A stretch of DNA of 64,000 nucleotides from Candidatus Spongiisociaceae bacterium (GCA_965262915.1 OZ253564.1:1664001-1728000); one strand, 5' to 3'; shown: positions 8,761 through 28,198, numbered from the stretch's first letter. A program made the numbers and translations. Notes: generated by a model not told the origin, from the letters alone.

Positions 8761-8972
8761 CAGCTCCACCGGACACTGCCGGAGCCTGAACCTGCCGGCA
8801 GCCCCAACCATGCCAGCAGCGCCGAACTTGGGCCGGCGGTTGATTCCTTCAAGAAGAGACCGACACCTGCGGGTACTTCAAGTATCGCTGTTGTTCAACC
8901 GTATCGCTCTGGGGCACGGTACGGATAGCTACGTCAACCGCCCTTTCGTCCCCAACAACAGCCGCCGCGCGG

Positions 8973-11099: not shown

Positions 11100-11605
11100 A
11101 CGCGGGGAGTGGCCGAGTCGGCGGACGAACGGTGAGCAGGGGCTCGGGATACGGGCGAAACACCGATTCTCAGTCAGCGAGAGGAGGTGACAGATTCCGG
11201 CTGAGGAGGTGACAGACTCCTGGGACCCCTACCATTACCCCTGGTCGGGGGTGGTCGCGAAGACCCCACGCAGGGGTCCTCGCGTGTTACGGGGTGCTGA
11301 GTTCGCGGGTTAGGGCTGTTGGTGGGGGTTCTGGCCTGTTTCAGGGGTGTTCGGGTGTGTTTGGCCGGGGCGTGGGGGTGTGTGGCTGTGGTTACGGGGG
11401 TATGGCGGCCGCGACGGTTGGTTCTGGACGCGGTTGATTGGACGGGGTGGGTTCCTGTCAAAGATGAGCGGTAGGGGGTTGGTTTATGGGGGTGCGCGGG
11501 TGGGTGTGGACTGGCCTGGGCGTTGGGTTGGTGAGGCTGCGGTGGTGTCGGGGGTTGCCTGGTCGGCGCGGGCTGGGGTGGCATGGTTGCGGTTCTTGGG
11601 GCGGC
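11100..11605. repeat. Element-end copy A (leader + paired direct repeats + palindromes + GT-rich tail + last ~40 transposase codons)
   Basis: GAGGAGGTGACAGA x2 at 11181/11203; CCCCTGGTCGGGG; CGCGAAGACCCC stem; minus strand reads RPKNRNHAT...PTRAPP* like the 12907 transposase end. Confidence 0.9.
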
Positions 11606-11693
11606 TGGCCCGGTGTGCGCGACTTGTGTAGCCAAAGTAAGGTATTACGAGAGGGCCGACAAAGCCGCCCCCGGCGAAGGGAAGCACCCGGGC

Positions 11694-12074
11694 ATGGCCA
11701 CAACATCCACCGAACGGCTCCGCGACCTGGACGTGTACACCCACGACGACGGACGGCGGTACGTGTTCGACATGCGGATACCCCCCGGCGACACGCAAGA
11801 TGTGACCCGTGTCGAACCCCGCCCTGGTTTGAGCGTCTGGGTGGAGTTCCGGAGCGGCGCCCGCGGGACTGTCGATCTGTCCGACATCGCCGACGCGACG
11901 CCGAAGGTTGCGGAGCTGTGGTCGGACAGGGACTACTTCGAGACCGTCCACGTCGCGGACGGGGGGGTGGCGTGGGAGAGCGACCTTTACGATATCAGTC
12001 CGATGGTCCTGTACATGCGGGTCACGGGCAAACAGTTGGACGAAGTGTTCCCGCAGGTCAGATTCCTGGACTGA
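11694..12074 (+). CDS. DUF2442-family antitoxin-like protein
   Basis: VTRVEPRPGLSVWVEFRSG...GGVAWESDLYDISPMVLY pattern; RBS GAAGGGAAG. Confidence 0.75.
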   Translation: MATTSTERLRDLDVYTHDDGRRYVFDMRIPPGDTQDVTRVEPRPGLSVWVEFRSGARGTVDLSDIADATPKVAELWSDRDYFETVHVADGGVAWESDLYDISPMVLYMRVTGKQLDEVFPQVRFLD

Positions 12075-12358
12075 TGCCACGCATCTCCGAGTTCTACGGC
12101 ATCAAGATACGCATTTTCTACAGGGAACCGCACTGGCTGCCCCATTTCCAAGCCCGCCACGCAGGCAAAACGATAAGTGTCAACATCAAGACTATGGAAG
12201 TGCTCAGCGGGGCCGTTGGTAGGGGCCGGTTCGACGTAACCGCGTTGGACCATGTCATGGAGTGGGGCTGGCTTCACCAGCAGGAGCTGCTAGACGCATG
12301 GGAGGACGCCCGCCAGGGTCGTCCCCTACCCTGGATAGAACCACTCCCGGGCGGGTAA
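12074..12358 (+). CDS. DUF4160-family protein (TA partner of DUF2442)
   Basis: MPRISEFYGIKIRIFYREPHWLPHFQA...EWGWLHQQELLDAWE; TGATG coupling. Confidence 0.85.
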   Translation: MPRISEFYGIKIRIFYREPHWLPHFQARHAGKTISVNIKTMEVLSGAVGRGRFDVTALDHVMEWGWLHQQELLDAWEDARQGRPLPWIEPLPGG

Positions 12359-12906
12359 CAGGACATCCAGTTCCCCCGGTTACGGGATGCCCCGTCGCGC
12401 GGCGAACGACGGGAGTTCAACGAATCGTCAACACCAGCCGCGGACCGCCCGCAGGGTCGCAGGTTTCCCGCAGCTAAGGCCGGCGGGTCACGGACGAAAC
12501 CGGGAAGCCGCGCAGACTTAAGGGCAGGGCGCCGCTCTACGGCATCGACCCCGCCTGTAAACGGCGGGGCCACGCCCGGCTAGGCCGTTCGATTCTCAGC
12601 CAGCGAGGAGGAGACAGATTCCGGCTGAGGAGGAGACAGACTCCCCGGACCCCTACCATCACGCCTGGTCAGGGGTGGTCGCGAAGACCCCACAGCGGGG
12701 TCTTCGCGTGTTGGGCCTGTGTTAGTTCGCGGGTTAGGGGTGTTGGTGGGGGTTCTGGCCTGTTTTCGGGGTGTTCGGGTGTGTTTGGCCGGTGTTCGGG
12801 GGTGTGTGGCGGTGGTTGCGGGTGGTGTTGGCCGCGACGGCCGGTTCTGGACGCGTTTGGTTTGACGGGTGGGGTTCCCGTCAGCGGGGAGCGGTAGGGG
12901 GTTGGT

Positions 12907-14697
12907 TTATGGGGGTGCTCGGGTGGGTGTGAGCTGGCCTGGGCGTTGGGTTGGTGCGTCTGGTGGGGTGGTGTCGGGGTTCGTCTGTTCGGCGTGGTCC
13001 GCTGTGGCATGGTTGCGGTTCTTGGGGCGGCGGGTTCTTCCGGTTTGTTCGAGGTTGTGGATGACGGCTGCCATGAGCGCGGCGAGTGTGTGGGGAGCGA
13101 GACCGAACGCGCGGCAGGAGTCCTTCTCTAGGCTGCCGTCGTCTTTGATCATGCCGTTGACGCCTTCGACGGGGTTGCGTCCGGCGTAGTCGGTTGCCCA
13201 CTTCGTGGTGCCGTAGGCGTTGCGCTGGTGGTTGTCGAGTTCGTCGACACCGAGGGTGATCATCCCGTCGCAGCAGGTTTCCCTGTCGGCGACGGCGGTG
13301 ACGGGCAGGGGGGTGCGGCGTTTGCGGCGGTTGGCCCGTTCGGATTTGCGGGTTTTGGCTGTGCTTCTGACTTTGCCTGCGCATTGGGGGCATATGATCT
13401 TCTTCCGCCCGTCGGGGAAGCGTCCGATGACTACCCATGCGTATTTGGCTCGTTCGTCGAACCATTCTTGGCGGTCGGTTCCGGTCAGCCCGTCGGATGG
13501 GCTGAGTAGGTGTTCTGGTGTCCATTCGACGAGAGGGGTGCCACAGTTCACATAGATGGGGGTGTTGTTTCTGCCTGCGGTGATGAGCTTGACGCCTCCC
13601 TGTTTGTCTTTGGCCTGGTTCATTACGATCTCCCAGCCGTGTTCATGTAGGGGCCGGACGAAGGTCGTTTTCTTGGCGGTGTAGTGCTGGTCGGCTTTCA
13701 CGACTTCGACGCGGGGTGCTAGCTGCTTCGCTTTGGTGGCTACCTGATATCCGATGGGTCCGACGTGTTGGTCGGCGGCTGCGAGGACCATCGAGACAAT
13801 GTACGGGGAGACAGGCTCCTGCCGTTTGCCCCGGATGGAGGCGCGTACTGCAACGGCTAGATGAGCGAAGTAGCCGTTGAACCCCCCGGCTGGGTATTTC
13901 GACGTTGCGCTGCGGCGGCCGGAGCCGTCTTCGACGTCCTTGGTGTGTTGGATCTTGCCGTTGAGCTTGAAGATCGTTTCAGGGGGTATGCGGCCGGCGT
14001 CGATCTCTGACTGGCGTGTGAAGTCGGTGGTGCGTGCCCAGGTTTGGTAGTCGGTGCCGTCGAGGGCGATCTCGGAGACCTTGCTAGCGACCCATTTGGG
14101 AATCGACGGCCCGAGGAAGCGGTCGACCATCCATTGCAGATCGATGCGGGTCCCGTCGGCTGTTTCCGCTCCGTCGCGGAGGAAGCGTTCGATGCGGTGG
14201 GCCTGACGCCAGACGAGGTTGTAGGACACGAGCGAGTCGCCACTGTCGGGATCCAGCAGACCCCATTCCACCGCGACTGCAGCGTCGAGACCCGAGACAA
14301 CCTCGCACAACGTAGTCCGCTTGTAGCTGCCTTGGTGCCGAGCGGCGAGGAGCATGACCGTAAGGATCATCCGGGTAGAGAGCACGGGCTGTTCCCCCGG
14401 ATGGGCACGCAGGACCTCGTCTATGCGCTTGCAGACTCCGGTGTTGCCCACGTACTGATACATGCGCCGGGCGCTGAAGGCGGCAGTGAGTATCGGTCCC
14501 CGGCGGCGGATTCCCTCCTCGGCGGTATCCCCCCAGATGTGGTCACCCGACCGACCTGTTTCGTGGTCGTCGGCGCTGGGATGGTCTCTGGGTAGTCTCC
14601 TCTGAGCGTTCAGCTCGTACAGCCGGGCCGGTTCCGGGATGCCCTTCTTGGCGTACCGGTCGCGGCAGCGGCGGGCAGCCCGGGCCGTGCTGCTCAC
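12907..14697 (-). CDS. DDE transposase (IS4/IS5/IS1182-like RNase H fold) with Cys-rich insertion
   Basis: IALDGTD, VKADQHYT and YAGRNPVEGVNGMIK (Y-2-R-3-E-6-K signature); CPQC...CC; low-complexity P/T/R tail. Confidence 0.8.
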   Translation of the reverse strand: MSSTARAARRCRDRYAKKGIPEPARLYELNAQRRLPRDHPSADDHETGRSGDHIWGDTAEEGIRRRGPILTAAFSARRMYQYVGNTGVCKRIDEVLRAHPGEQPVLSTRMILTVMLLAARHQGSYKRTTLCEVVSGLDAAVAVEWGLLDPDSGDSLVSYNLVWRQAHRIERFLRDGAETADGTRIDLQWMVDRFLGPSIPKWVASKVSEIALDGTDYQTWARTTDFTRQSEIDAGRIPPETIFKLNGKIQHTKDVEDGSGRRSATSKYPAGGFNGYFAHLAVAVRASIRGKRQEPVSPYIVSMVLAAADQHVGPIGYQVATKAKQLAPRVEVVKADQHYTAKKTTFVRPLHEHGWEIVMNQAKDKQGGVKLITAGRNNTPIYVNCGTPLVEWTPEHLLSPSDGLTGTDRQEWFDERAKYAWVVIGRFPDGRKKIICPQCAGKVRSTAKTRKSERANRRKRRTPLPVTAVADRETCCDGMITLGVDELDNHQRNAYGTTKWATDYAGRNPVEGVNGMIKDDGSLEKDSCRAFGLAPHTLAALMAAVIHNLEQTGRTRRPKNRNHATADHAEQTNPDTTPPDAPTQRPGQLTPTRAPP

Positions 14698-15647
14698 GCT
14701 CTCAACCCTTCGAGGGCGGCTTCTACCGGATCGAGGTCAGCGGCCGCAGCTGCCAGCAGCGCGGTGAGGGTGTCACCCGACAACGGACCGGCGATCCGGC
14801 GCAGCGCCGACAGGGAAGTACCCGCGTGTAGGTGGGCGACCAGCCATGTGGAACGGGCACGCCGCACCGAAAGGGTACGGCCACTGATCCCAACCTGCCG
14901 ACACAACATGTACACAGCGGTGCGATGCGTCGCCGAAACGAACCGTTCGCCGTCGGCCAGCTCCACAGCTTCGCGTACGAGGGATGTGTAATCGTGGCGT
15001 ATCGGCACCATGCGCGGATGCGTGCCCCCGACCCGTATACCGAGCCGGTCGTTTCCGAGGTTGACCAGATCGCCGGTCTCGGCTGCTGCGACCGCCGGAC
15101 TGAGCAGACCCGCCCCGAGAGTGGCAGCGACCACCCAGCGACGGCCCGCGGGCTCCACCCGGGCCGGCAAACGTGCCGACAGCCGGAACACTGCCTCATC
15201 TCCCGGCGTATACGGGCTCGACGGGGGTATGCGCCCGATCGGTTCCCCAACAGGGGCCTCGACCCAGCCGTCCGGGAACACAGCCCGCCCCACCCGGCGT
15301 AGAATCCACCTGGTGTGGCGCCGCCACACCACACTCTTATGAGCGTTCGCTTCGAACGCCCAGTACTCCACGTTGGCGGGACACAACATCCGGACATCCA
15401 CCGTGGCAGACACCCCGAATGTCCAGGCAGCGAACTGCGACGTAACGCGAAGCATCTCGCGGACCATCGAAACGGTATCCGGGTGAGCAGCCGCAACCCA
15501 GCAACGTACCGTCGGCCATACCAGCGTTTCGAGGTCTCCGCTGTCATCCGGATAGGTGTCCCAAACCGGTGGGCGCCACAACGACAGCCTCGCCAGCACG
15601 TCAGGAACCAGATCGGCAGATAGCGGAGCCCGGGTGAAGCAGGTCAC
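14694..15647 (-). CDS. Tyrosine recombinase/integrase-fold protein, catalytic residues apparently substituted
   Basis: SSPYT, LGAGLLSPAV (box I, R->L), PRMVPI, LSVRRARSTWLVAHL (box II), AGPLSGDTLTALL (no Tyr); GTGA overlap with the transposase. Confidence 0.7.
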   Translation of the reverse strand: MTCFTRAPLSADLVPDVLARLSLWRPPVWDTYPDDSGDLETLVWPTVRCWVAAAHPDTVSMVREMLRVTSQFAAWTFGVSATVDVRMLCPANVEYWAFEANAHKSVVWRRHTRWILRRVGRAVFPDGWVEAPVGEPIGRIPPSSPYTPGDEAVFRLSARLPARVEPAGRRWVVAATLGAGLLSPAVAAAETGDLVNLGNDRLGIRVGGTHPRMVPIRHDYTSLVREAVELADGERFVSATHRTAVYMLCRQVGISGRTLSVRRARSTWLVAHLHAGTSLSALRRIAGPLSGDTLTALLAAAAADLDPVEAALEGLRA

Positions 15648-15715
15648 AGCCGCGACCTTGACCGTGGGGAGGCGGTCTGCCGCAGCCAGGGCAGCCGCAT
15701 CACGGCCTCGTGTTG

Positions 15716-15812
15716 TATACTATACTGCACAAGAAGCCCCCCAGTGGGTGTAAGGCCCGCGGTGCTCAGAGTTTTGTCAGAACCGTTTGAGCACCGTGGG
15801 CTCTTCTGTTTT
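15716..15812 (+). ncRNA. Putative small antisense/leader RNA (copy 2)
   Basis: TATACTATACT 15716-15726; stem GCCCGCGGTGCTCA/TGAGCACCGTGGGC 15755-15801 then TCTTCTGTTTT. Confidence 0.45.
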
Positions 15813-15922
15813 CGGCGCCGCCCTGTAAAAAGCACGCAAGGCCCTTCGCATGGCAGATCACGAAATAGCAGCCGCTGAACGGATCGTGGACGACAACTTT
15901 GATGAGATGCTGGAAGGGTGGT

Positions 15923-16519
15923 ATGACCATTTTCAACGATGATCTGGCAGTCGCCCAGTTAGAAGTCACCGACAGCGCGATACGTGTCTGGCTGAACGAC
16001 GGCAGAACGCTGACTGTTCCCGTTGGATGGTTCCCCGACCTAGAATCCACCGACCCCTTACAGTGGGGTCGGTGGATTCCGACAGGTTCGGGGGTTCGCT
16101 GGCCGGATCTCGGCGTGGAAACCAAGTTGGGGGATTTGCTGGCGGATAGCCCACTCCAGCATCCCGAAGGGATCGACCATGCCCGTCTAGCCAACGTGGA
16201 CGTGACCAACCGTAGTCTCTGCGTCTGGTTAAACGATGGCAGAACGCTGACTGTCCCGCTCTGGTGGTTTCCCCGCCTATGCGACGGCACACCCGAAGAA
16301 CGGAACGGGTGGCATATCAGAGACGGCGGAACCGATATCGTTTGGAAAGATCTGGACGAAGTGTATTACCTAGAAGATCTGTTAGCTGGGGGCTGGTCGC
16401 GGGAATCAGCTCGGTCGCTGGGTCGGTGGCTGCTCGCCCGCAGAGAAGGCCGACCCGTCGCCGCCTACCAGATTTCCAAGTTCCATAAGAGTATGCCCCA
16501 GCCAGAACCGTTGACCTAA
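15923..16519 (+). CDS. Tandem double-DUF2442 antitoxin-like protein
   Basis: VWLNDGRTLTVP(V/L)(G/W)WFP occurs twice, also repeated at DNA level. Confidence 0.8.
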   Translation: MTIFNDDLAVAQLEVTDSAIRVWLNDGRTLTVPVGWFPDLESTDPLQWGRWIPTGSGVRWPDLGVETKLGDLLADSPLQHPEGIDHARLANVDVTNRSLCVWLNDGRTLTVPLWWFPRLCDGTPEERNGWHIRDGGTDIVWKDLDEVYYLEDLLAGGWSRESARSLGRWLLARREGRPVAAYQISKFHKSMPQPEPLT

Positions 16520-16830
16520 CGGGAGAATACTCATCGCTACGCCGCCCACCACCATCAGGTGGACCGACTCTGGTGGGGCTGCGAACAGGTTGCGGCTAGG
16601 CGACGTGAGAAGCCTGTCTAACTGCTTATCTAGTTCAGGGAACAGAACCCTTAGCAGGGTACGCTGATCGAAGGTTTGTGACAACGGGCCGCTCTTTTAA
16701 GAGTTCTGTGCTTCTCTGGCGGCGTGCGCTGCGCGGAGCCGGGCGAACACATCCTTTTTATATTCCAGCATGTCGGCTTCGTAGTAGACGCCGTGTTTAG
16801 CGCAGGCGGGCGGCGCAAGCGCCCGACGGG
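16516..16830 (-). pseudogene. Fragment of an antitoxin C-terminus + nucleotidyltransferase (DUF6036-like) N-terminus
   Basis: RRALAPPACAKHGVYYEADMLE resembles the end of 24194-24682; FDQRTLLRVLFPELD...HLMVVGGVAM resembles the start of 24686-25225. Confidence 0.5.
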
Positions 16831-17590
16831 GATCCACGCGGGAATCACCGCCATCATCTCCCGTGCCCGAACAGCGGCAGTCGCGTAATCATGCTTTCCG
16901 ATAGCGTTCTGCATCTCGGACATGGACCCGAAGTACGCGTCCGTCGCGGCTGTCGGGGGTTCCCTGAACGCACCGCCAGAACCGAGATCGGACTCCGACG
17001 CCACCTGAAGGGTGGCCGCGTCCTTCTGTAGCAACGCGCCGAGCTTCGTGGAATCACTAGTACTCATACACGACGTCCAGTCGACGAGGCGGGTTCCAGC
17101 CATATGACCCTCCCCGCTGGTATCTCCTTCCACGGCCCGACGTCAGAAGCGCTTGCCTTCGTATCGCACGGCCCCCCACCTGGACAACATCGCCATCTGA
17201 CCTCCGGCCACCTACTTCGATCACTTCTACCTCCCCTGCTCAGCGGCAGCCGTGACGCTTCCGCCGCCGCTCCATGCCCATCTGGCAATTGATACCAACT
17301 GGGCCGCTGGCGATCAGCAACTAACCGTACCGGGCTAGCCGCGGGATGCGGGCAGGGCTCCCGCCTAGGCCGCCGGGGGGTCAATGTCAGCTCCACGTAT
17401 GAAGGTGCCTTACGCGGACCGGGACGGCGTACTGGTTCACGCGTCGCAGGTGGAGCGGGGTTGGGCGTGCGGATGCGTCTGTGTCGGGCACCAAGACCAG
17501 ACCTCATTTCGCTCATCACGCTGGTGCGGGGGATTGTGACGGGAGTGTGGAACCCGTCTGGTAGCTAGAAGGGCGTTGGCCGCTGTCTCG

Positions 17591-18053
17591 GCGACTGAGA
17601 AGAGGAGACAGACTCCCGGGACCCCTACCATTACCCCTGGTCAGGGGTGGTCGCGAAGACCCCACAGAGGGGTCTTCGCGTGTTATGGGCTGTTGAGTTC
17701 GCGGGTTAGGTGGTTTGGTCGGGTTCTTGGGTGGTTTCGGGGGTCTTAGAGCCGGTTTCGGCGGTGTTCGTGGTGGTTGTGGCGCCGGTTATGGGTGCTG
17801 GTGGTTTTGGTGGCTGGTTCTGGACGCGTCTGGTTCGACGGGTGCGTTCCCGTCAAGGATGAGCGGTAGGGGGTTGGTTTATGGGGGTGCGCGGGTGGGT
17901 GTGGACTGGCCTGGGCGTTGGGTTGGTGAGGCTGCGGTGGTGTCGGGGGTTGCCTGGTCGGCGCGGCCTGGGGTGCTTGGGTTGTCCTTCTCGGGGCTCC
18001 GGGTTCGTCGGGTTTGTTTGAGGTTGTGGATGACGGCGGCGGCGAGTGTGTGG
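17591..18053. repeat. Element-end copy C (one direct-repeat unit, palindromes, tail, ~55 transposase C-terminal codons)
   Basis: GAGGAGACAGACTCCCGGGACCCCTACCATTACCCCTGGTCAGGGGTGGTCGCGAAGACCCCACAGAGGGGTCTTCGCG; minus strand HTLAAAVIHNL...PTRAPP*. Confidence 0.9.
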
Positions 18054-18075
18054 CTGTTACCGCCCTAGAGTCGGG

Positions 18076-18366
18076 TCATCGGAGCATCCGGTCAACGTCC
18101 CTGCGAATCTCCGCTACGTAGGCATCGTCCGCGAGGCGGCTCTTGGCAATTTCCATTATCTGTATTGGCCTGCGGCGCGCGTTCTGCTGATGGCGCATCT
18201 TCTTATCTCCGGTGATCACCAACGCGAACCCGTCATCGACGGCTTTGTCCAACATCGCCCCGTTGGACAAAGCCTTCCAACCCATGTAGTCGACCGTATA
18301 GGTTTCGTAGTCAGGGAACAGGTGACGCAGGCGAATATCCAGGTCTTCGTCTATCAGGATCTTCAC
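18076..18366 (-). CDS. DUF5615/PIN-like toxin (VapC45-like)
   Basis: MKILIDEDL...MGWKALSNGAMLDKA...VITGDKKMRHQQN. Confidence 0.85.
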   Translation of the reverse strand: MKILIDEDLDIRLRHLFPDYETYTVDYMGWKALSNGAMLDKAVDDGFALVITGDKKMRHQQNARRRPIQIMEIAKSRLADDAYVAEIRRDVDRMLR

Positions 18367-18371
18367 AGGGA

Positions 18372-18959
18372 TTATCCCAGCGGTCCCTGGTAGCCCTGAT
18401 CCGCGGCGTGGCGCAACACCGCTTCGACGTGTTCGTAGTCCACGTCGTATGTGTCGCTGAACTCGCGGGCTGTTCTCCCTGCCTTCAGGAAGTCGAACAA
18501 CGCTTCGACGGGGTGCCAGGTGCCCGCGAACGTGGGCTCCGGCGGGGGTGTGAACCCCACGAAGTGGACGCCTGGCACGTCGGTCACGCAGGTGAGTTCC
18601 ACGAAGGGGCAGCCTGTCAGATCGACCGTGCCCACCGGCGGGTCGCTGGTCATGTAGTCGTAGACAGCCCTGACAGGTTCCGTATCTATCAGGTGAGCGT
18701 CAGGGAAGGTGTCCAGGGTGCCGCCGCCTGTGGTCAGCCAGTCGACCAGGGTGTCCGCTGGGATACGACGCCCGATAAAGGTTGCCTGACCGCCTTTCCG
18801 TCCGGGAACGTATTCGAGGGCCGCACAGCCCCGCCAGTCAACCATCCGGAGAACCATCGGGTCGTCGTGACGCTCCGCCCACGAACCAGCAGGAAGCTCA
18901 GACGGTGTGTCTTCGGCTGCTCCACTCGTGGTGCCCGAATGTAGCAATGTGTCGCTCAT
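18372..18959 (-). CDS. Double DUF433 antitoxin-like protein (copy 1)
   Basis: EYVPGRKGGQATFIGRRIP and FAGTWHPVEALFDFLKAGRTAREFSDTY: two DUF433-like units. Confidence 0.8.
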   Translation of the reverse strand: MSDTLLHSGTTSGAAEDTPSELPAGSWAERHDDPMVLRMVDWRGCAALEYVPGRKGGQATFIGRRIPADTLVDWLTTGGGTLDTFPDAHLIDTEPVRAVYDYMTSDPPVGTVDLTGCPFVELTCVTDVPGVHFVGFTPPPEPTFAGTWHPVEALFDFLKAGRTAREFSDTYDVDYEHVEAVLRHAADQGYQGPLG

Positions 18960-19045
18960 TAGCGTGCCCGACCTACTGTGGTTATCCGATAGAGAGTGTC
19001 TAGGCACATTCTACCCGAGAGGACGCTGCTGTGTAGCGTTCCTGC

Positions 19046-19510
19046 CCGTTCGATTCTCAGTTGGCGAGAGGAGGTGACAGATTCCGGCTGAGGAGGAGAC
19101 AGACCCGCAGGACCCCTACCATCACCCCTGGTCAGGGGTGGTCGCGAAGACCCCACGCAGGGATGTTCGCCACTTATGGGCTGTGATGTTCGCCACTTAT
19201 GGGCTGAGGGGGGTGTGGGCGCCGGTTTTGGGGTGTTCGGGGGGTGCCGGGTGGTGGTTCAGCGGGTTTCGCGGTGGGGTGGGGTGGTTCTTGCGGCCTG
19301 GGGTGGGGGTGGGTGATGTTCGGGACGTGGCGGGTCGGACCCTTCCGGGTCAGCGGTTTGTGGGGTTAGCCAGCCTGGGGTGGTGCCCTGCTGTGCTGGT
19401 TCGGGTTGTGTTCCGCTGGTAGCGGCGACTGTTCGACGGTTGCGTCGGTGATGTGTGGGGTGTGTTCGGGTGTACTGGTGGGGTCGGGCCGGGCGGCGGT
19501 TGTGGGGTAC
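19046..19510. repeat. Element-end copy D (core to ~19162, then 23-bp tandem duplication and a diverged GT-rich tail)
   Basis: CCGTTCGATTCTCAG...GAGGAGGTGACAGATTCCGGCTGAGGAGGAGACAGA...; GATGTTCGCCACTTATGGGCTG twice. Confidence 0.85.
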
Positions 19511-19654
19511 TAGAGTCGGGGATGAGCCCCCCTTTCGTGGGGTTGTAGGTCCGCGGCGCCCGTGCCCAGCCAAAGGTCAGGGCGTCGCGGATGCTTCTTA
19601 CGTGGCCTTCCCCTGCTGGGACGGCCGCTCTTATTCAACACACGACTGTGATTG

Positions 19655-19941
19655 TGTTTCCGCCAGCCCGTGACCTTCTCCGCCACGTCGGCGGGCAGGT
19701 CGGTGGACAGCGGAGACTTCGAGAAGCAGGTCACAGCAGCCGTCCCATCAACCAGATCCGATATCGAATCTCCGAACTCAAACGAAGGGTTCAGACCCAC
19801 CCGGGGATGCGGCCACAACCGACCAGAATCCAACTCCTCCCGCACACGAGCACGAACCCGACCGTCCCGCGGCCGCAGAAAACTCGTCGTATACGCACTG
19901 TACGTGTCAACAAGATCATCCCGCAACGCAAAAACGTCCAC
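19655..19941 (-). pseudogene. Chimeric remnant: N-terminus of a large DEAD/DEAH helicase fused to the N-terminus of a third Int-fold paralog
   Basis: MDVFALRDDLVDTYSAYTTSF...LWPHPRVGLNPSFE resembles DUF1998-type helicase starts; then VTCFSKSPLSTDLPADVAEKVTGWR matches MTCFTRAPLSADLVPDVLARLSLWR. Confidence 0.6.
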
Positions 19942-20419
19942 TACAACAACCTACCCAACGACGGCTGGCGGGAAAAGGGCTCGTCCCCCAGACAACTCAA
20001 ATACTGACACAAGAACCAATTCTATCGTTCTGCGGTTGCTGCGACGGGAGCGGTGGCAGCCGCCCCACCTACCCGCCCAGGATGGCGGGGCAACGACGCG
20101 TTTCTCCCAGTATGGCTCCACACTGAGCTCCTGTACCGTCGGTGGTGGCGACAACCGTGAACGTTCCGTCAGGACTGACATCCCCGTCACGGGGTATGTC
20201 CGAATACATCTTGGCGGCTCGCGCGCACCTGACGCAGAGAAACGCGTCGAACTCCCAGTCACTCTCCATGTTGGTTCGGTAATACGATGCGTGGCTCATC
20301 ATCGGCCCTCTCTCATCCGTCCCTTGCGGCCCCGACTTAGACGACAGGCTTCTCACGTCGCCCAGCTGGCGGTCATCCGACCAGGCTACCGAGCACATGC
20401 GTACCTGTTGGGCGTGCAA

Positions 20420-20562
20420 TCCCCCGACGGGCAGCTGATCGTCGAAATCTACGGCTACGACACCTACGACCCCACCACCCGCACCGTCCAACCCTCAGAC
20501 GGAGACGACATCGACTCGTGGATGGTCGACACAGCCCACGACGGCAACAACTTCTTCCCCCG
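20420..20562 (+). pseudogene. C-terminal fragment of a type III-like site-specific DNA methyltransferase
   Basis: DGQLIVEIYGYDTYDPTTRTVQPSDGDDIDSWMVDTAHDGNNFFPR resembles the GxDxYDPTTG...IAxWFIDTDYxxxSFFVR tail of such methylases. Confidence 0.55.
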
Positions 20563-20650
20563 CTGTCGGCGACGGCGGTGACGGGCAGGGGGGTGCGGCG
20601 CTTGGTCCGGTTGGCCCGGTTGCGGTTATAGGTTCGGGCTGTGCTTCGGA
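20563..20650 (-). pseudogene. 88-bp internal fragment of the DDE transposase
   Basis: Colinear with 13283-13370 (CTGTCGGCGACGGCGGTGACGGGCAGGGGGGTGCGGCG...GCTGTGCTTC). Confidence 0.85.
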
Positions 20651-20703
20651 ACCCGCTGCGGGTGTCTACGACCCGTCTAGGCCGCTTCTCTTAGGCTGAA
20701 GGC

Positions 20704-20919
20704 ATGGACGCTAGAGATGTCGCTGCGATGACCGCTGATGCGATGAACAGCATGGAACAGCGCATTGAGGGAAGCATCGCTCGGCTCGACGCCAAAATAG
20801 ACGGAGTGAAGCACGACGTCCACCTGCTCAGCGTCAAAGTCGATGTGGGCCTTGAGACCGTGGGCAGACAGATGGACGAAGGCTTCCGCCAGATCATCCA
20901 GCACATAGACCGCCGGTAG
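20704..20919 (+). CDS. Small coiled-coil hypothetical protein
   Basis: Heptad pattern MEQRIEGSIARLDAKIDGVKHDV; GAAGG upstream. Confidence 0.55.
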   Translation: MDARDVAAMTADAMNSMEQRIEGSIARLDAKIDGVKHDVHLLSVKVDVGLETVGRQMDEGFRQIIQHIDRR

Positions 20920-21275
20920 GCGTCCCCGCTTCCTGAGTCGCCGGCCCCAGCCCGCAGCTGCCAGCTGCGCCACTAATGTCTGGGGTGGTGCAGGCCGGTC
21001 GGCCTGCACGTCTCTCAAGTCTGCTTCGATCTGAGCGACATGATCGTCGTACCGGCCCGTAGCCAACGCTATGCCGAGGTTATGGCTCTGCTCTCTGGTC
21101 ATCGACCCGTCCCCGGTGATCACCAACGCGAACCCGGCATCGACGGCTTTGTCCAACATCGCGCCGTTGGACAAAGACTTCCAGCCCATGTACTCGACCG
21201 TGTAGGTTCGTAGTCAGGGGAAGGGAACAGGTGCCGCAGGCGAATATCCAGGTTTTCGTCTATCAGGATCTTCAC
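20920..21275 (-). pseudogene. Frameshifted DUF5615/PIN toxin (copy 2)
   Basis: Homologous to 18076-18366 with a 6-bp duplication and a 1-bp deletion near codon 23; diverges after ITGD. Confidence 0.75.
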
Positions 21276-21280
21276 AGGGG

Positions 21281-21853
21281 TTATCCCAGCGGCCCCTGGT
21301 AGCCCTGATCCGCGGCGTGGCGCAGCACAGCCTCAACGTGTTCGTAGTCCACGTCGTATGTGTCGCTGAACTCCCGGGCTGTTCTCCCTGCCTTCAGGAA
21401 GTCGAACAACGCTTCTACACGGACCAGGGTGCCCGCGAACATGAGCAGCGGCGGTGGGGGTGGCCCCACGAAGTGGACGCCTGGCACGTTGCTCAGGCAG
21501 GTGAGTTCCACGAAGCGGCAACCCGTCAGGTCGACCGTGCCCACCGGCGGTCCGCTGGTCATGTACTCGTGGACAGCCCTGACAGAACCCATGTCTACCC
21601 TGAACGCTTCGGGGAAGGTTTCGACGGTGCCGCCTGTGGCAAGCCAGGAGACCAGGGTTTGCGCTGGGATACGACGCCCGATAAAGGTCGCCTGTCCGCC
21701 GTTCCGCCCGGGAACGTATTCGAGGGCCGCACAGCCCCGCCAGTCAACCATACGGAGAACCATCGGATTGTCCAGATGCGTCGCCGACGAACCAGCAGGG
21801 ACCGCAGACGGTGTGTCTTCGGCTGCGCCCGAATGTAGCAATGTTTCGCTCAT
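21281..21853 (-). CDS. Double DUF433 antitoxin-like protein (copy 2)
   Basis: Close paralog of 18372-18959, including the upstream region. Confidence 0.8.
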   Translation of the reverse strand: MSETLLHSGAAEDTPSAVPAGSSATHLDNPMVLRMVDWRGCAALEYVPGRNGGQATFIGRRIPAQTLVSWLATGGTVETFPEAFRVDMGSVRAVHEYMTSGPPVGTVDLTGCRFVELTCLSNVPGVHFVGPPPPPLLMFAGTLVRVEALFDFLKAGRTAREFSDTYDVDYEHVEAVLRHAADQGYQGPLG

Positions 21854-21944
21854 TAGCGTGCCCGACCTACTGTGGATATCCGATAGAGAATAGAGAGTGT
21901 CTAGGCATATTCTACCCGAGAGGACGCTGCTGGGTAGCGTCCCT

Positions 21945-22043
21945 GCCATGCCCGGCTAAGCCGTTCGATTCGCAGTCAGTGCGAGGAGGAGACAGATTCC
22001 GGCTGAGGAGGAGACAGACTCCTGGGACCCCTACCATCACCCC
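21945..22043. repeat. Element-end copy E (short)
   Basis: GCCATGCCCGGCTAAGCCGTTCGATTC...GAGGAGGAGACAGA x2...GGACCCCTACCATCACCCC; stops at the palindrome. Confidence 0.9.
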
Positions 22044-22108
22044 ACGACCCATGTTTTTGCGAGGTAGCTCAGATGCACTCAGGTATATAAGCCCCCTATG
22101 CTGAGGAC

Positions 22109-22399
22109 ATGACTCGGCGCAATGATGTGCTTGTTCGTCACCGCGAGGCGATCCTGGCTGCAGCTAGGAACCGACGGGGCCGCCGCGTCGCTCTGGTCGG
22201 TTCGGTCGCTCGCGGCAACGATACGCATAACAGCGACTACGACTTCCTAGTGGATTTCGACGACGATGTCAGCTTGTTCGACATGGCGGGCCTGCAAGTC
22301 GATCTCGAAGACATCCTCGGCGGCCGCGTCGACATCGTGCCTAGGTCCAGCGTCAAGGAGCATTGCCAAGATATGTTCAAGGACGCCGTAGCGTTATGA
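22109..22399 (+). CDS. Minimal nucleotidyltransferase (MNT) antitoxin
   Basis: LVGSVARGNDTHNSDYDFLVDF...LEDILGGRVDIV. Confidence 0.85.
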   Translation: MTRRNDVLVRHREAILAAARNRRGRRVALVGSVARGNDTHNSDYDFLVDFDDDVSLFDMAGLQVDLEDILGGRVDIVPRSSVKEHCQDMFKDAVAL

Positions 22400-22484
22400 A
22401 CAGGCGCGACCCGGACACAGGCGAACTGGTCGTGTACCACGCCCACTGGATGTAAGGGAATCGGCGGCTGGTCGGCAACCGGTG

Positions 22485-22751
22485 CTAGAGAGCTGCGAGC
22501 TTTACCTTTCGGCCTGTAGGCACCCCGTTGGATATCGCCGCGATCCAGACATGATCGGGCAGGTCCGGGTCGGTACGGACGATGCGGCCTTCGTCCCATG
22601 CGTAACCGTCCGGTAGCTGACTGATCAGGTAGTCAAGGCCCCTCGCGAAGATGTGGTCGTACGCGCCGGCAGCGGCTTCGTCGGCCTGGCGGAGCAGCCG
22701 CGCTTCGAACTCTTCGCGGGTCTCAGTGCGGGTATCTGATCGGGTTGCCAT
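22485..22751 (-). CDS. Small hypothetical protein, paralog of 28282-28545
   Basis: Shared YLISQLPDGY...RIVRTDPDLPDHV motif. Confidence 0.7.
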   Translation of the reverse strand: MATRSDTRTETREEFEARLLRQADEAAAGAYDHIFARGLDYLISQLPDGYAWDEGRIVRTDPDLPDHVWIAAISNGVPTGRKVKLAAL

Positions 22752-22818
22752 CGCTGCTCACCTTGCCACCGTCAGGGCCGGTTGGCAAGGACAGCCAGCG
22801 GTGACTGGAGTTACGCAA

Positions 22819-22856
22819 TCGCCGAGAGACTCCGTGGCAGGGCGCCCAGAACCCGC
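22819..22856 (+). repeat. 38-bp dispersed repeat, copy 2
   Basis: Matches 853-890. Confidence 0.8.
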
Positions 22857-23089
22857 GCCGCTGGGACATCGCGGTGTGCGACACGTTGGGGTGGGACATC
22901 GACCAGGTCGCAGAACTCGGGGAGCTACTGGCGAAAGAACCGACCGTGCGGGGCGTCGCGTACGGTCAGTGGAGAACGTAGGCCCCCGAACCTGCGCCGA
23001 GCGCGTGGTTGACCGTCTGTGCTGGGGTCGGCTGCCGGGCACACTACAGTCGAACAAGTACGAGAGTGCCCCTCCTCAGTCACTGGGGT

Positions 23090-23300
23090 GAGGTGACGTC
23101 GTCTGGTGTCTAGAGGTGACGTCCTCCCCTGCCCCCCACCTAACTGCCTGGTCAGGGGTCTTCGCGTGTTATGGGCTGTTGAGTTCGCGGGTTAGGTGGT
23201 TCGGTCGGGTTCTTGGGTGGTTTCAGGGGTGTTCGGGTGTGTTTGGCCGGGGCGTGGGGGTGTGTGGCTGTGGTTACGGGGGTATGGCGGCCGCGACGGT
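23090..23300. repeat. Element-end copy F (variant direct repeats, internal deletion, mosaic tail)
   Basis: GAGGTGACGTC at 23090 and 23113; CCTGGTCAGGGG joined directly to TCTTCGCGTG; tail matches copy C then copy A. Confidence 0.8.
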
Positions 23301-23321
23301 CGCTCGGGTATCATCACACCT

Positions 23322-23681
23322 ATGACTTCGCCCGCCCGTTCGGTGACCGTATCGCGGACCCGCTTGTTGAGCCGCCCGCCTGTGTCCATCCCCGACGACA
23401 TGGAAGACCGGACGCTGCCGAAAGCGTCCGGGGTGGTGACCCTACCCGGCCATGTGGCCTGGTCAGCGCCCCGCACATTCGACATGGACAACCAGCGCCA
23501 GCTGATAAGCATGTACCAGACGGTGATGACCGAGGGGTTAGACGACGACGTCCGCTACTACATCGACATCGACTTGCTAGTCGAATTGTGGGACGATCTG
23601 TGGCTGTCCCCCTATGTCCGCGAAGCATGGTCAGCGTGGCTGCACGACAGGGGACTGATCGACGACCCCGCTGGATGCTGA
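23322..23681 (+). CDS. Putative antitoxin partner of AbiEii-type toxin
   Basis: GVVTLPGHVAWS...MYQTVMTEG...LWDDLWLSPYVREAW; overlaps the downstream nucleotidyltransferase start. Confidence 0.65.
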   Translation: MTSPARSVTVSRTRLLSRPPVSIPDDMEDRTLPKASGVVTLPGHVAWSAPRTFDMDNQRQLISMYQTVMTEGLDDDVRYYIDIDLLVELWDDLWLSPYVREAWSAWLHDRGLIDDPAGC

Positions 23682-24157
23682 CCGAACTACAGGAACGGAC
23701 CTGGCGGATACTCGCAGCGGTTCCCGAAGCAGACGGGTTCGCGTTAGCGGGAGGCTCAGCGCTGATCCTGACCGGTGTAGTCCAGCGCGGAAGCAACGAC
23801 CTAGACGTGTTCGGGACGTACCCTGGGTCAGCCATCCCCTTCGCTGAAGCAGCCCAACGAGTTCTGACCAGCGAAGGGCTGAACCCGACAGTGGAACGAT
23901 GGGGAGAGGGGTTCGTCCGTATGCGAGTCACTGACGGTGCTGACACAACATGGGTGGATATCGCGATCGATGTCCGCCGGCACCCGACGGTTGCAGACCC
24001 GACCGGACCGGTCCTGAACATCCGAGAGTTAGCAGCCGACAAGATGCTGGCGTTGGGGTTGATGCGGATGCTGGTGTGGTGTTCGAGCGTGGTTGGCCGT
24101 TGTCTGTGGTGGGATTGTCGGTTGCTCGGAGGGCGTGGACTCGTCGGGTGTGTTTGA
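23675..24157 (+). pseudogene. AbiEii/AbiGii-family nucleotidyltransferase toxin, C-terminally truncated at ~24057
   Basis: FALAGGSAL, RGSNDLDVF, ELAADKMLAL, then GT-rich foreign sequence instead of the expected RDxxD motif. Confidence 0.7.
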
Positions 24158-24193
24158 GGGAACGGTACAATCAGGGGAAATGGACGGATGGCT

Positions 24194-24682
24194 ATGACAA
24201 CAAAAGAAGCGCTTCCCCAGCGGCTGTACGGATACCTGGACAGCGCCGGCAACTATCAACCGACAGCCGTCCCCAAAATGGAGCTGACCGCCGCTGACCT
24301 GCCGCCTCTGATGGTCGTACCCGACCTTCGCGGGTCGTACAGGTATCCGCTGTTGCAGTTCATCTTCGACTGGAACAGGTCAGTCGACAAGGCTCGGTTG
24401 ATCGCTGAGCCGCCTGTCTACGACGGGGACGACCCTGTGCTGCTGCCGGCTATCGCAGTGGTCGTTCACGCGCTCGCCGACCGGGCCGGGATCCCTATAC
24501 CCGGCTGGGTGTTCGAGCATCGCGCCCCGACCGACATCGCGTTGTTCGTTCCTGACTACATGCCGAAATACGCGGAGTGGCTCAAACGCAGGTCACATCC
24601 GCTGTCGGAGTACCATCGGGTTCATATTCATCCCCGAATGCTGGACAAAGGAACCGACGACTGGTGGCTGCCCTGGGACTGA
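24194..24682 (+). CDS. Hypothetical antitoxin-like partner of DUF6036 nucleotidyltransferase
   Basis: LIAEPP...AIAVVVHALADRAGIPIPGWV pattern; 3 bp from the next gene. Confidence 0.6.
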   Translation: MTTKEALPQRLYGYLDSAGNYQPTAVPKMELTAADLPPLMVVPDLRGSYRYPLLQFIFDWNRSVDKARLIAEPPVYDGDDPVLLPAIAVVVHALADRAGIPIPGWVFEHRAPTDIALFVPDYMPKYAEWLKRRSHPLSEYHRVHIHPRMLDKGTDDWWLPWD

Positions 24683-24685
24683 CAT

Positions 24686-25225
24686 ATGTCTGAACGGGGA
24701 CTGACCAGAGAACAGCTAATCGGCCTGTTCGAAGAGTTGGACCTGTGGCTCGCTGCGAGACAAGCCGCCCACTACCAGATTCTGGTAGTGGGCGGTGCTG
24801 CTATCGCCCTGCAGTGGAATCCCTCCCGGCTTACCAACGACGTGGACGCTGTCTCGGAAGGTTTCACCGACGAATTACGGGAAGGGATCGCAGCAGTCGC
24901 CGCGAAACGGGGCCATGTGCGGGCCGATTGGCTCAACGACGCTTCCAAGATGTCGACTCTCTCCCCCCAGGCCGACGCTTCCCCCACCCCCATATACGAA
25001 GGGACCAACCTGACCATCTACGGAGCAGGCGCCCGGTACGTGATGGCCATGAAGGCGATCTCCGGCCGTCCCGTAGACCTAGCGGACCTTCCGGTTCTGG
25101 TTAGGGCAGCCGACTTCGATACGCTCGACGAAGCGTTGGAGTGGATAGACCGCGCCTACCCACTCCGTTCGACACCTGTATCAGCCCGATACGCTCTCGA
25201 ACAGATATGGGCTGACCTGCACTGA
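24686..25225 (+). CDS. DUF6036-like nucleotidyltransferase
   Basis: ILVVGGAAIAL, RLTNDVDA, DWLND, AMKAISGRPVDLADL. Confidence 0.8.
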   Translation: MSERGLTREQLIGLFEELDLWLAARQAAHYQILVVGGAAIALQWNPSRLTNDVDAVSEGFTDELREGIAAVAAKRGHVRADWLNDASKMSTLSPQADASPTPIYEGTNLTIYGAGARYVMAMKAISGRPVDLADLPVLVRAADFDTLDEALEWIDRAYPLRSTPVSARYALEQIWADLH

Positions 25226-25631
25226 TAATCCCGCAAACCACCACCCGTAGCCCGCCGCCACCCCGTCAGGTCGCAGCACAGGAGCCCTTTCATCCCAGAC
25301 CCATCATCGCGGAGCGGCTCCTCTCCCTCCGTCAAACCCCCACCAAATGAATTATCGGGGGTTGGAAATGGCCGAGTGGTTTATCGGCGAGATGAAGTCG
25401 ATCTAGCCGACCCCGGACCCTTTCGACCATCGGCGCGGGATAGCGGTACGGTGTTCTACGCAGCGCAGGCGGCGAGCCCTACACGCACCATGTCCGGCCG
25501 GCGCATCATCTGGTCAGCAGCTACGACGCCATAGCCGTTGAATGGTTGAACGTGGCGGGGATGCTCCGCACCAATATGTTTTCGCACAGGATGGCTTCGC
25601 AGCGTTGGGCCGCCTATGACCACATATTGGA

Positions 25632-25804
25632 ACGCGGGGAGTGGCCGAGTCGGCGAACGAACGGTGAGCAGGGGCTCGGGATACGGGCGAAACACCGATT
25701 CGCAGCGACTGGGAAGAGGAGACAGATTCCGGCTGAGGAGGAGACAGGCTCCTCGGACCCCTACCATTACCCCTGGTCAGGGGTGGTCGCGAAGACCCCA
25801 CAGC
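25632..25804. repeat. Element-end copy G (shares the ~65-bp leader with copy A)
   Basis: ACGCGGGGAGTGGCCGAGTCGG...CACCGATTC...GAGGAGACAGATTCCGGCTGAGGAGGAGACAG...CGCGAAGACCCCACAGC. Confidence 0.9.
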
Positions 25805-26062
25805 CATCTCAGCCAGCCGCCGTGCCGTGCGCCGCCGCCGTCGGCGCCGCCCACATCACCACACCACAGCAACGCCGCCACACATGTCACACGACACGAC
25901 GACGGTGGAGTCTTCCGCGTCTTCGGCCTCGGGCCGGGCCAACACGGATCGCGTAGGACCGTACTCAACCAACCGCTGGGGGCAGCGACTCCGCTAGGAT
26001 AGTTACGTAGCGTTGCGGATATACTCGATGTATTACGGGGTGCGTATTACCATCCGCACGTA

Positions 26063-26235
26063 ATGGTTGCAGCTACCAGGAGGACGAGCATTCTCGATCT
26101 CTTGGCTGATCGCGCCAGCATCTCGAGTGGTGAAGTAGCGGATTTGCTTGGCGTGACGCGACAGACCGCGCATCGCCACCTGGCGGGGCTAGTCCGAACC
26201 GGAGATTTGGCGCGGACGGGTCAGGGACGCGCTAT
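26063..26235 (+). pseudogene. N-terminal wHTH fragment of a regulator
   Basis: ILDLLADRASISSGEVADLLGVTRQTAHRHLAGLVRTGDLARTGQGRA; the frame then turns non-protein-like. Confidence 0.6.
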
Positions 26236-27987: not shown

Positions 27988-28198
27988 GAAGTCAGCCTTT
28001 AAGCATGGTTACGACCCTGAGGATATAGAGCGAGTGTTGGATCATCCCTTAAGCGTTCGGGAGGTTATCACCAGCAGAGGCTCCTCGGCGATATCCAAGA
28101 TCGGATTCGCGTCAAATTTGACCCTGATAGATGTACGCTATCGATATCATCCCCACAGCGGGGAGCGCGTAGTGTTTCACGCACAGAAGGTTCCCTAG
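27974..28198 (+). CDS. Small BrnT/RelE-like toxin candidate
   Basis: SAFKHGYDPEDIERVL...IGF...VVFHAQK; 74 aa. Confidence 0.55.
   Translation: MVLYRKSAFKHGYDPEDIERVLDHPLSVREVITSRGSSAISKIGFASNLTLIDVRYRYHPHSGERVVFHAQKVP

Follow-up and report, generated by a model that had tools for sequence, protein, structure and literature searches.

A transposon family that probably stacks cargo head to tail behind tRNA genes in a Candidatus Spongiisociaceae bacterium

The stretch of DNA analysed here (the window) comprises 64,000 nucleotides of a Candidatus Spongiisociaceae bacterium (GCA_965262915.1, OZ253564.1:1664001-1728000; its genome is called G000 below), and its positions 11,100 to 25,804 hold a row of toxin-antitoxin (TA) and defence genes punctuated by a conserved repeat block. 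Seven copies of the block lie on the plus strand, at 11.1, 12.6, 17.6, 19.0, 21.9, 23.1 and 25.6 kb. A self-comparison of the window of the find_repeats type returned repeat families of four to five copies at these seven places, and blastn of 12400-16000 against the window returned the same places together with 1-579. The 14-nt box GAGGAGGWGACAGA gave 11 matches with at most one mismatch, all on the plus strand and all within the seven copies, against 0.03 expected, and this number was reached in 0 of 100 shuffles. No copy of the block was found in 25.8-64 kb by the repeat search, the GAGGAGGWGACAGA search or blastn of the window. The seven co-oriented copies described in an earlier note on this DNA, and their absence from the other ~38 kb, were borne out, and Pfam supported the DUF2442, DUF4160, DUF433 (twice), MNT (NTP_transf_2), AbiEii and DUF6036 genes placed between them; the assignment of a 'PIN' gene goes back to a DUF5615 match below the threshold (E 0.0017, 18.7 bits against a cut-off of 23.8). 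The probability that six or seven members of one transposon family are stacked head to tail in this region, behind a tRNA-Met gene 2.4 kb upstream of the window, is put at roughly three in four.

In a genome-wide blastn, the block split at 12696/12697 into two parts, each of which also occurs apart from the other. The first part is a boxed module of ~130 bp terminating in CGCGAAGACCCC, and the second begins with GGGGTCTTCGCGTGTT and continues into the 3' end of a gene for a 596-aa protein. Each copy of the block is the seam of two abutting neighbour elements, not a single transposon end cut at different inner points as had been supposed, and runs in the order right end (two GAGGAGGWGACAGA boxes, a hairpin, CGCGAAGACCCC), five bases and left end of the next element (GGGGTCTTCGCGTGTT and onward). 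Copies A-D (11.1, 12.6, 17.6 and 19.0 kb) contain both halves with 5 nt between them, copy E (21.9 kb) is a truncated right end alone, copy F (23.1 kb) joins a left end to a divergent right end whose terminal repeat is deleted, and copy G (25.6 kb), the last, is a right end alone followed by unrelated DNA. The left end of the first element, U, lies directly behind the tRNA-Met gene, and therefore the array begins outside the window and ends at 25804.

Read outward from the tRNA, an element opens with a left end formed by the 12-bp terminal repeat GGGGTCTTCGCG and ~200 bp of G/T-rich DNA. Two coupled genes follow, both pointing towards the left end and encoding a predicted DDE transposase (P0001 in element B of the window) and a recombinase-like protein (P0002); next come the cargo genes and finally a right end of ~130 bp with two GAGGAGGWGACAGA boxes that closes in CGCGAAGACCCC. 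The terminal 12-mers CGCGAAGACCCC and GGGGTCTTCGCG form an inverted repeat. A second end subfamily carries GGGATGTTCGCCAC/GTGGCGAACATCCC, and junctions that mix the two subfamilies occur at copy D of the window (CGCGAAGACCCC-ACGCA-GGGATGTTCGCCAC) and at genome positions 687516 and 1598261; the CGCGAAGACCCC/GGGGTCTTCGCG 'stem' noticed earlier is therefore a by-product of abutted inverted repeats rather than a functional hairpin. Three full gene sets with 74-84% DNA identity exist in G000, namely B, U (-2416 to 579 in window coordinates) and X (4.155 Mb), and since the set of U, 84% identical, straddles the window start, the 12.6-kb copy is not the only one with full genes. Most members lack the two genes and persist as end-flanked cargo cassettes: A', C', F' and the genome segment 476302-479044 have both ends and cargo and no transposase gene, the last with AbiEii cargo and ACCAA on each side. 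A first genome-wide scan with the 12-mer and two mismatches was too noisy for use. Another multi-copy element of G000 ends in ...CACCTGT followed by GGGGTGTTCGCGTGAG (528346, 543533, 690475, 2810909, 3669032, 4418990, 4998729 and other positions); this terminus is similar to the left terminal repeat of the present family, but what lies next to it is unrelated. Two ideas on the right end were dropped, namely that it mimics a tRNA T-arm, for which the distances do not fit, and that GTTCGATTC in the boxed module is a tRNA remnant, which is not conserved among copies.

P0001 is most probably an IS4-type DDE transposase with a Tn5-like fold, as its residues and its structure model suggest. The alignment of its relatives displayed a nearly invariant D213 and invariant D336 and E511, and the motif Y504-(2)-R507-(3)-E511-(6)-K518 reads Y-2-R-3-E-6-K, the signature of IS4. 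The AF2 model (predicted local distance difference test, pLDDT, of 70) best matched the Tn5 transposase (1muh, E 4.5e-4), which alone reached E<=0.001, followed by piggyBac and ISCth4. Against the Pfam family DDE_Tnp_1_6 the protein scored 23.4 bits, below the cut-off of 25.1; the NCBIfam search gave nothing for P0001, P0002 or 13 other open reading frames (ORFs), a PDB sequence search with the alignments of P0001 and P0002 gave nothing meaningful, and tblastn of P0001 against plasmids returned a single hypothetical protein, 24% identical. There are 26 close homologues of P0001 in 5.8 billion clustered proteins, and a profile search reached 1391 cluster representatives at E<=0.001, 255 of them even at E<=1e-30. 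Among 36 sampled relatives, five matched DDE_Tnp_1 and one DDE_Tnp_1_6 (all E<=0.001) and 30 had no Pfam family, the cut-off of DDE_Tnp_1 being passed by two of the 36. Pfam shows no rve, AAA or TniQ family in element B, whose genes besides cargo are P0001 and P0002 alone.

P0002 matches no Pfam or NCBIfam family. Its model (pLDDT 80) had 45 PDB matches at E<=0.001, of which those listed are all tyrosine recombinases, led by XerA, XerH, Cre, Tn1549 Int and IntI. No Tyr follows Arg-II (R265), the alignment of 19 relatives contains no conserved C-terminal Tyr, and the Arg-I position is occupied by Leu in the close relatives, Arg being kept in the distant ones. P0002 is accordingly read as a putative DNA-binding protein devoid of recombinase chemistry, and its fold and the analogy with TnsF of Tn6022 suggest that it may select the target. 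A complex prediction for P0001 and P0002 gave a score of 0.08 (mark 0.32). Pfam found no Phage_integrase match in 9-28 kb. A divergently oriented third gene, for a 126-aa protein, is present in U and X (81% aa identity between the two) and absent from B. The sole Pfam lead for the copy in U (1054-1434) is a non-significant match (E 0.17, 12.4 bits against a cut-off of 22) to the B-block-binding winged helix of TFIIIC, which in eukaryotes attaches to tRNA genes at their T-loop box, and is not evidence.

In four cases in G000, one and the same 5-mer precedes the outermost left end and follows the outermost right end: ACCAA (476302-479044), ACAGC (the window array), GCTCC (tRNA-Arg array, 4155525-4181769) and ACTTA (692299-686346, minus strand). 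Two distant loci add to these. L083 (transposase 33% identical, at tRNA-Thr) has the repeats GGGATGATCTCCA/TGGAGATCATCCC 4.8 kb apart and is flanked by TCGGC, and L089 (30% identical, behind a transfer-messenger RNA (tmRNA) gene) is flanked by ACTTT, which brings the matching 5-bp flanks to six elements or arrays from three transposase lineages. Left ends lie directly behind tRNA genes in G000 in the case of U at tRNA-Met(CAT), X at tRNA-Arg(CCT) and a second-subfamily end at tRNA-Glu(TTC). In the tRNA cases the duplication usually begins at the discriminator base, the tRNA gene remains intact and the target is regenerated; the gap from discriminator to terminal repeat is exactly 4 nt in 8 of the 12 tRNA-adjacent cases of the close family. 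Only 5 bp are repeated at the tRNAs and different tRNAs share no core, and the signs of a tRNA-integrating island, namely direct repeats copying the 3' part of the tRNA and an active integrase, were not found. With two ends, 12-bp inverted repeats and 5-bp target duplications present, one-ended transposition, which had been considered earlier, finds no support; the tRNA target had escaped attention because the tRNA-Met gene lies outside the window. Within the window, ARAGORN called an 84-nt tRNA-Met at 41668-41751 on the minus strand, which Rfam did not call at the gathering score.

The boxed module was detected in 11 of the 41 genomes searched, G000 included: six of the seven other genomes of the genus, four of eight from a second genus and none of the rest, with up to 18 copies per genome and 83-94% conservation across the two genera. 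P0001 matches were found in 8 of 29 genomes of the family, again with G000. The public genome collection yielded 19 loci with relatives, all labelled as Acidimicrobiia-type metagenome-assembled genomes. Seven are distant (L083, L084, L089, L090, L091, L093 and L094, 29-42% identity), five of them matching near full length and L093 and L094 in the C-terminal part alone. In all seven, a tRNA or tmRNA gene (tRNA-Thr, Val, Ala, Lys or tmRNA) lies on the opposite strand a few hundred bases past the 3' end of the transposase gene, and in four a P0002-like gene lies directly upstream. The window has a tRNA-Val(TAC) of its own at 55206-55279, directly after which the G+C content drops from ~0.70 to ~0.63 (55206-64000), with a multi-copy insertion sequence (IS) at ~56275-57708; in the relative G006, tRNA-Val(TAC) is bordered by a remnant of a transposase of this family, but no left end of the family was found at the tRNA-Val of the window.

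Stacking on one spot is seen directly in G006, whose array behind tRNA-Leu(CAG) has ACGAA at the tRNA side, at two internal junctions and at the far end, its last member being a 0.5-kb cassette with one small ORF between both ends. In G021, ACACT stands at the tRNA-Met side and at the first internal junction, and a later right end is followed by ATATA. The near-identical strain OZ244034.1, with a flank 99.36% identical to that of G000 over 4809 nt, has tRNA-Met and ACAGC and then directly element B, the two strains being 99.94% identical over 12689-15819 and 98.95% over 15816-19243. G000 has in addition U and A' (14.1 kb) between tRNA-Met and B with ACAGC on each side, and the internal spacer of U and A', ACGCA, is also what is duplicated at the tRNA-Met of G006; past copy D, the strains diverge once more. 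The presence of U and A' is most simply read as the insertion of a composite of both into the tRNA-side target, the alternative being a deletion in OZ244034.1 between two identical 21-bp stretches (ACAGC plus terminal repeat). In line with the earlier note, copies cluster in a few arrays genome-wide, flank variable TA and defence cargo and follow a different order in different strains; the copies do belong to a transposon, and its elements are co-oriented and head to tail. As for the suggestion that the element repeatedly inserts at its own end, repeated insertion at one spot is seen directly in relatives, in the four ACGAA 5-mers of the tRNA-Leu array, but the primary target is the 3' end of tRNA and tmRNA genes.

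The tRNA-Met site of G004 holds no element. The right flank (25805-33000) is not syntenic with the tRNA-Met locus in five relatives, and therefore no empty site with both flanks can be demonstrated. The stretch occurs in 20 sequencing entries from seven studies, all of them contigs, with no RNA entry listed. In four sequencing runs the contigs break at the repeats, and joints reach at most 39 letters on the shorter side (for instance 12691>17669, side 28, in three runs), so that the contigs cannot show excision, circles or array order; 9600-10800 in the cargo of U had no cover in three of the four runs. In G002 (contig 2, 89313-94313), an insert of ~5 kb separates an intact tRNA-Met from a duplicated 3' half of the same tRNA, behind which lies a left end of the transposon family; an island of the integrase type seems to have come into this tRNA later than the transposon did. 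A repeat of ~170 nt upstream of tRNA-Met (L079, reverse complement, 517-686, corresponding to G000 ~1657290-1657460, ~6.6 kb upstream of the window) recurs at ~58 other places in G000, on either strand and with 72-87% identity, and has the look of a small dispersed repeat.

TA and defence genes are present in all arrays of G000. PADLOC recognised a HKD+Snf2 helicase (E 2.8e-96) and a type IIG restriction-methylase (E 9.6e-135) in the cargo of U, and X carries an MmeI-type enzyme. The other arrays hold AbiEii, DUF2442, DUF433, MNT, HepT, Fic and DUF5131 genes together with unrelated IS (ISL3, IS110 and IS30-like). Cargo in the window lies on both strands, with the DUF433 modules on the minus and DUF2442, MNT and AbiEii on the plus strand. 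Just past the array, at 26063-27987, are encoded a helix-turn-helix protein and a 427-aa protein, the latter matching the PADLOC candidate PDC-S39 (E 1.7e-12), in DNA of lower G+C (0.56-0.60) with no counterpart at the tRNA-Met locus of five relatives.

The anatomy, inverted repeats, 5-bp duplications, association with tRNA and tmRNA genes across lineages, stacking and strain variation are observed directly. The preferred target is a tRNA or tmRNA gene end, at the 5 bp of which the discriminator base is the first; insertion duplicates these 5 bp and regenerates the target, and elements pile up on the same 5 bp. A mechanism can be proposed in conditional terms. P0001 would cut and paste the element, and P0002 would bind the tRNA gene in its T-arm/acceptor part, or else the boxed right end, and would position the transposase. 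Any left end together with any downstream right end of a stack might move jointly as a composite, which would carry old junction 5-mers along as fossils, and new arrivals would enter at the tRNA side. The family may still be active. In its fullest form the proposal is tentative, with odds somewhat short of even: a new class of site-specific cargo transposon, in which an IS4-type DDE transposase would be steered by a domesticated, dead tyrosine recombinase to the discriminator 5 bp of tRNA and tmRNA genes, the newest member would lie next to the tRNA, runs of neighbours would move as composites, and the array would be a transposon-built functional equivalent of the integron, collecting TA and defence genes in Acidimicrobiia. 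With the target regenerated and target immunity lacking, elements and gene-less cassettes would in this proposal accumulate head to tail.

Several observations weigh against tRNA-targeted stacking. Of the four tRNA-adjacent cases of the close family outside the eight with exactly 4 nt, two have a gap of 7 nt and one of 10 nt, and in the fourth it may be 4 or 5 nt. Of 25 left ends in four relatives (a count that leaves out a 26th match at a contig end), seven lie behind a called tRNA and six behind another right end, and 12 lie behind neither, although ~4 of these look T-arm-like by eye. No tRNA precedes 537249 in G000, and the sequence before 476302, which resembles a tRNA 3' end, is called by neither ARAGORN nor Rfam. 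The internal spacers of the window (ACGCA, ACAGC, ACAGA and ACGCA) do not all equal the outer ACAGC, and in the tRNA-Arg array the internal right ends adjoin unrelated 5-mers, with no left end coming after them. Full-length, uninterrupted transposase genes exist in G000 alone (three copies), and the seven of the 28 other family genomes with a match hold fragments or stop-containing copies. No transposition event was observed, and the argument for the role of P0002 consists of its fold, the gene coupling and the TnsF precedent.

Unequal spacers and lone right ends require composite moves, recombination or decay. If the last two had done most of the work, the array would be one old tRNA-linked island reshaped by homologous recombination, duplication and decay, its 'elements' being fragments of a few ancestral copies and not the products of repeated independent insertions. 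The DUF433 module and a right end are indeed duplicated with a 2.9-kb period and 85-97% identity, the array copies are old as judged from their 74-92% identity, the internal spacers differ from the outer duplication, and the difference between G000 and OZ244034.1 is a possible deletion. This account is unlikely nonetheless, because cargo differs between nearly all neighbouring elements, the four junction 5-mers of G006 all match the tRNA-side duplication, junctions mix two end subfamilies, and a single end-flanked cassette with its own duplication (476302-479044, ACCAA) exists elsewhere. Recombination and decay have certainly contributed to the array, with the duplicated DUF433 module, truncated ends, deleted repeats and unexplained internal right ends at tRNA-Arg as their signs, yet they leave the matched duplications and the ACGAA array unexplained.

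A further possibility, distinctly more remote, is that the boxed module of 130 bp stands on its own, as a small mobile repeat or a small-RNA gene beside which the transposon prefers to insert. The module closes in 12 bp that repeat the left end in inverted form, the 5 bp past it equal the 5 bp before the outermost left end in the four G000 cases, and lineages with other terminal repeats have matching right-hand repeats, all of which speak for a transposon end. An RNA role is opposed by 25 distinct copies in which 0 of 13 predicted pairs showed a compensatory change (covariation term -0.25 kcal/mol) and by the finding of no matching Rfam family, even though the module folds into hairpins and ends in a terminator-like stem. 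What speaks for its independence is that it is better conserved than the transposase genes and, in its many copies per genome, often has no left end adjacent.

An integron-like or integrase system, in which the palindromic 12-5-12 junction and tRNA gene ends are recombination partners for P0002 or a host Xer and the DDE protein merely travels along, can be almost wholly dismissed: tRNA genes are classic integrase targets, P0002 has the full tyrosine-recombinase fold with IntI among its matches and the CGCGAAGACCCC-N5-GGGGTCTTCGCG junction resembles a recombinase core site, but P0002 lacks the Tyr after Arg-II and in close relatives has Leu at Arg-I, the 5-mers vary by site (ACCAA, ACAGC, GCTCC, ACTTA, TCGGC, ACTTT) although tyrosine recombination requires identical crossover regions in the partners, the duplicated part of the tRNA does not exceed 5 bp, and mixed-subfamily junctions are not palindromes.

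The tRNA-targeted transposon does share with integrons a growing, strain-variable row of small cassettes, often TA, beside one fixed chromosomal site. It differs in having no IntI, attI, attC or Pc promoter, in carrying cargo on both strands and in moving by DDE transposition with target duplication; no attC was found, the cassette borders being abutted terminal inverted repeats with a 5-nt spacer. Since IntI, attC and a common promoter are lacking, the array is integron-like in outcome only, and the statement that it works like an integron holds for the outcome and fails for the mechanism, which has no active tyrosine recombinase. The earlier interpretation was right in spirit, as this is a self-stacking, cargo-collecting array, and wrong in mechanism, because transposition is two-ended, tRNA-targeted and without integron parts.

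Mobile insertion cassettes, in which IS ends surround passenger genes and are moved in trans, are established for IS231/MIC231 of Bacillus cereus. Comparably, A', C', F' and 476302-479044 keep ends and cargo without a transposase gene, one of them with its own 5-bp duplication; the present cassettes differ in stacking at one site and in their TA and defence cargo, and their mobilisation in trans is putative. With IS of the IS4/IS5 type (Pfam DDE_Tnp_1; 1muh) the element shares the DDE triad, Y-2-R-3-E-6-K, terminal inverted repeats, a short duplication and the predicted Tn5-like fold, whereas P0001 falls below the Pfam thresholds and the element is set apart by a second coupled gene, asymmetric ends, cargo and a strict site preference.

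The nearest precedent is TnsF of Tn6022, a protein with an inactivated tyrosine-recombinase domain that is required for comM-targeted Tn7-like transposition (PMC10293859). Both systems combine a DDE transposon, an inactivated tyrosine-recombinase protein (in a putative accessory role here), site-specificity at a conserved host gene and cargo. The present element lacks TnsA, TnsB, TnsC and TniQ and has an IS4/Tn5-like transposase instead; in P0002 both recombinase domains are retained and an N-terminal zinc finger is absent, the targets are tRNA and tmRNA ends rather than comM, and the selector role of P0002 is putative. Translocatable units of IS26 are described as inserting beside an existing copy and building co-oriented cargo arrays (PMC4196232), and DDE elements of the IS1202 family are reported at dif sites, a constant 5 bp away from where a tyrosine recombinase binds (PMC10132070). 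On these accounts, both belong to other transposase families; here the target is the end of a tRNA gene and the recombinase-like protein is encoded by the element.

Full-text literature searches found no paper on this transposon family, which is quite probably a previously undescribed kind that lands exactly behind tRNA genes, and does so repeatedly. If this is true, a mechanism would be added to those gathering defence and TA genes into strain-variable tRNA islands, usually credited to integrases, and a simple Tn5-like transposase would be found paired with a dead tyrosine recombinase outside the Tn7 world, a pairing which suggests that target selectors have been co-opted repeatedly. It would also constitute a compact two-gene system for single-base-precise, gene-sparing insertion. 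The transposase family is large and almost unannotated, and many 'hypothetical' genes beside tRNAs may belong to it. The features of the array are collected in Table 1.

Table 1. Features of the array in window coordinates, except where genome positions are given
Feature	Position	Strand	Remarks
Left copy of duplication	genome 1661579-1661583		tRNA-Met discriminator A + CAGC
Upstream of window	genome 1661506-1664000		rest of the recombinase-like gene of U, U transposase, U left end, tRNA-Met
Recombinase-like gene of U, first 182 codons	1-546	-
126-aa gene	1054-1434	+	in U and X, absent from B; no significant family
U cargo region	1717-10967
HKD+Snf2 helicase	1717-4914	+	U cargo
Type IIG restriction-methylase	4863-8474	+	U cargo
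664-aa protein	8973-10967	-	U cargo; no known family
U right end	11100-11267	+	boxes 11181-11194, 11203-11216; hairpin; CGCGAAGACCCC 11256-11267
Junction spacer ACGCA	11268-11272	+	5 nt
A' left-end remnant	11273-11612	+	terminal repeat from 11273
Transposase gene remnant in A'	11487-11612	-	last 43 codons
A' cargo	11583-12358	+	DUF2442 11583-12074, DUF4160 12074-12358, overlap TGATG
A' right end	12567-12691	+	boxes 12605-12618, 12627-12640; terminal repeat 12680-12691
Spacer ACAGC	12692-12696	+	5 nt; same as tRNA-Met-side duplication and 25800-25804
B left end	12697-12906	+	GGGGTCTTCGCG 12697-12708; similar 16-mer at 12768; G/T-rich to transposase stop
P0001, predicted DDE transposase, 596 aa	12907-14697	-
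P0002, 317 aa	14694-15647	-	predicted tyrosine-recombinase fold; 4-nt overlap with transposase start
B cargo	15899-17519		double DUF2442 protein 15899-16519 (+)
B cargo ORFs	16651-17133, 17064-17519	-, -	no known family
B right end	17592-17663	+	inner side truncated; one box 17599-17612; terminal repeat 17652-17663
Spacer ACAGA	17664-17668	+	5 nt
C' left-end remnant	17669-18053	+	with last 61 transposase codons
C' cargo	18076-19007	-	DUF5615-like (sub-threshold match), DUF433 protein
C' right end	19046-19154	+	boxes 19068-19081, 19090-19103; terminal repeat 19143-19154
Spacer ACGCA	19155-19159	+	5 nt
D' left end	19160-19241	+	second subfamily, GGGATGTTCGCCAC
Transposase gene remnant in D'	20544-20651	-	36 codons
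D' cargo	20677-21949	-	second DUF433 module copy; 21087-21947 repeats 18183-19046, 85-97% identity
D' right end	21945-22043	+	cut before terminal repeat; boxes 21983-21996, 22005-22018
MNT-type nucleotidyltransferase	22109-22399	+	PADLOC PDC-S09; in decayed stretch between two elements
Divergent right end	23085-23154	+	two AGGTGACGTC boxes; terminal repeat and spacer deleted
F' left-end remnant	23155-23302	+
F' cargo	23213-25225	+	AbiEii-domain 23213-24157, 164-aa ORF 24188-24682, DUF6036 nucleotidyltransferase 24686-25225
F' right end, array end	25632-25799	+	boxes 25713-25726, 25735-25748; terminal repeat 25788-25799
ACAGC, right copy of 5-bp target duplication	25800-25804	+

Elsewhere in the window, three 136-nt copies of a repeat lie at 39140-39818 with a spacing of 261-282 nt and 0.73 G+C, and a G/T-rich short repeat at 61721-61786 has a GC skew of +0.37. 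At 62789-62907, Rfam recognised the actinobacterial small RNA Ms_IGR-7 at the gathering score (45.3 against 45 bits).

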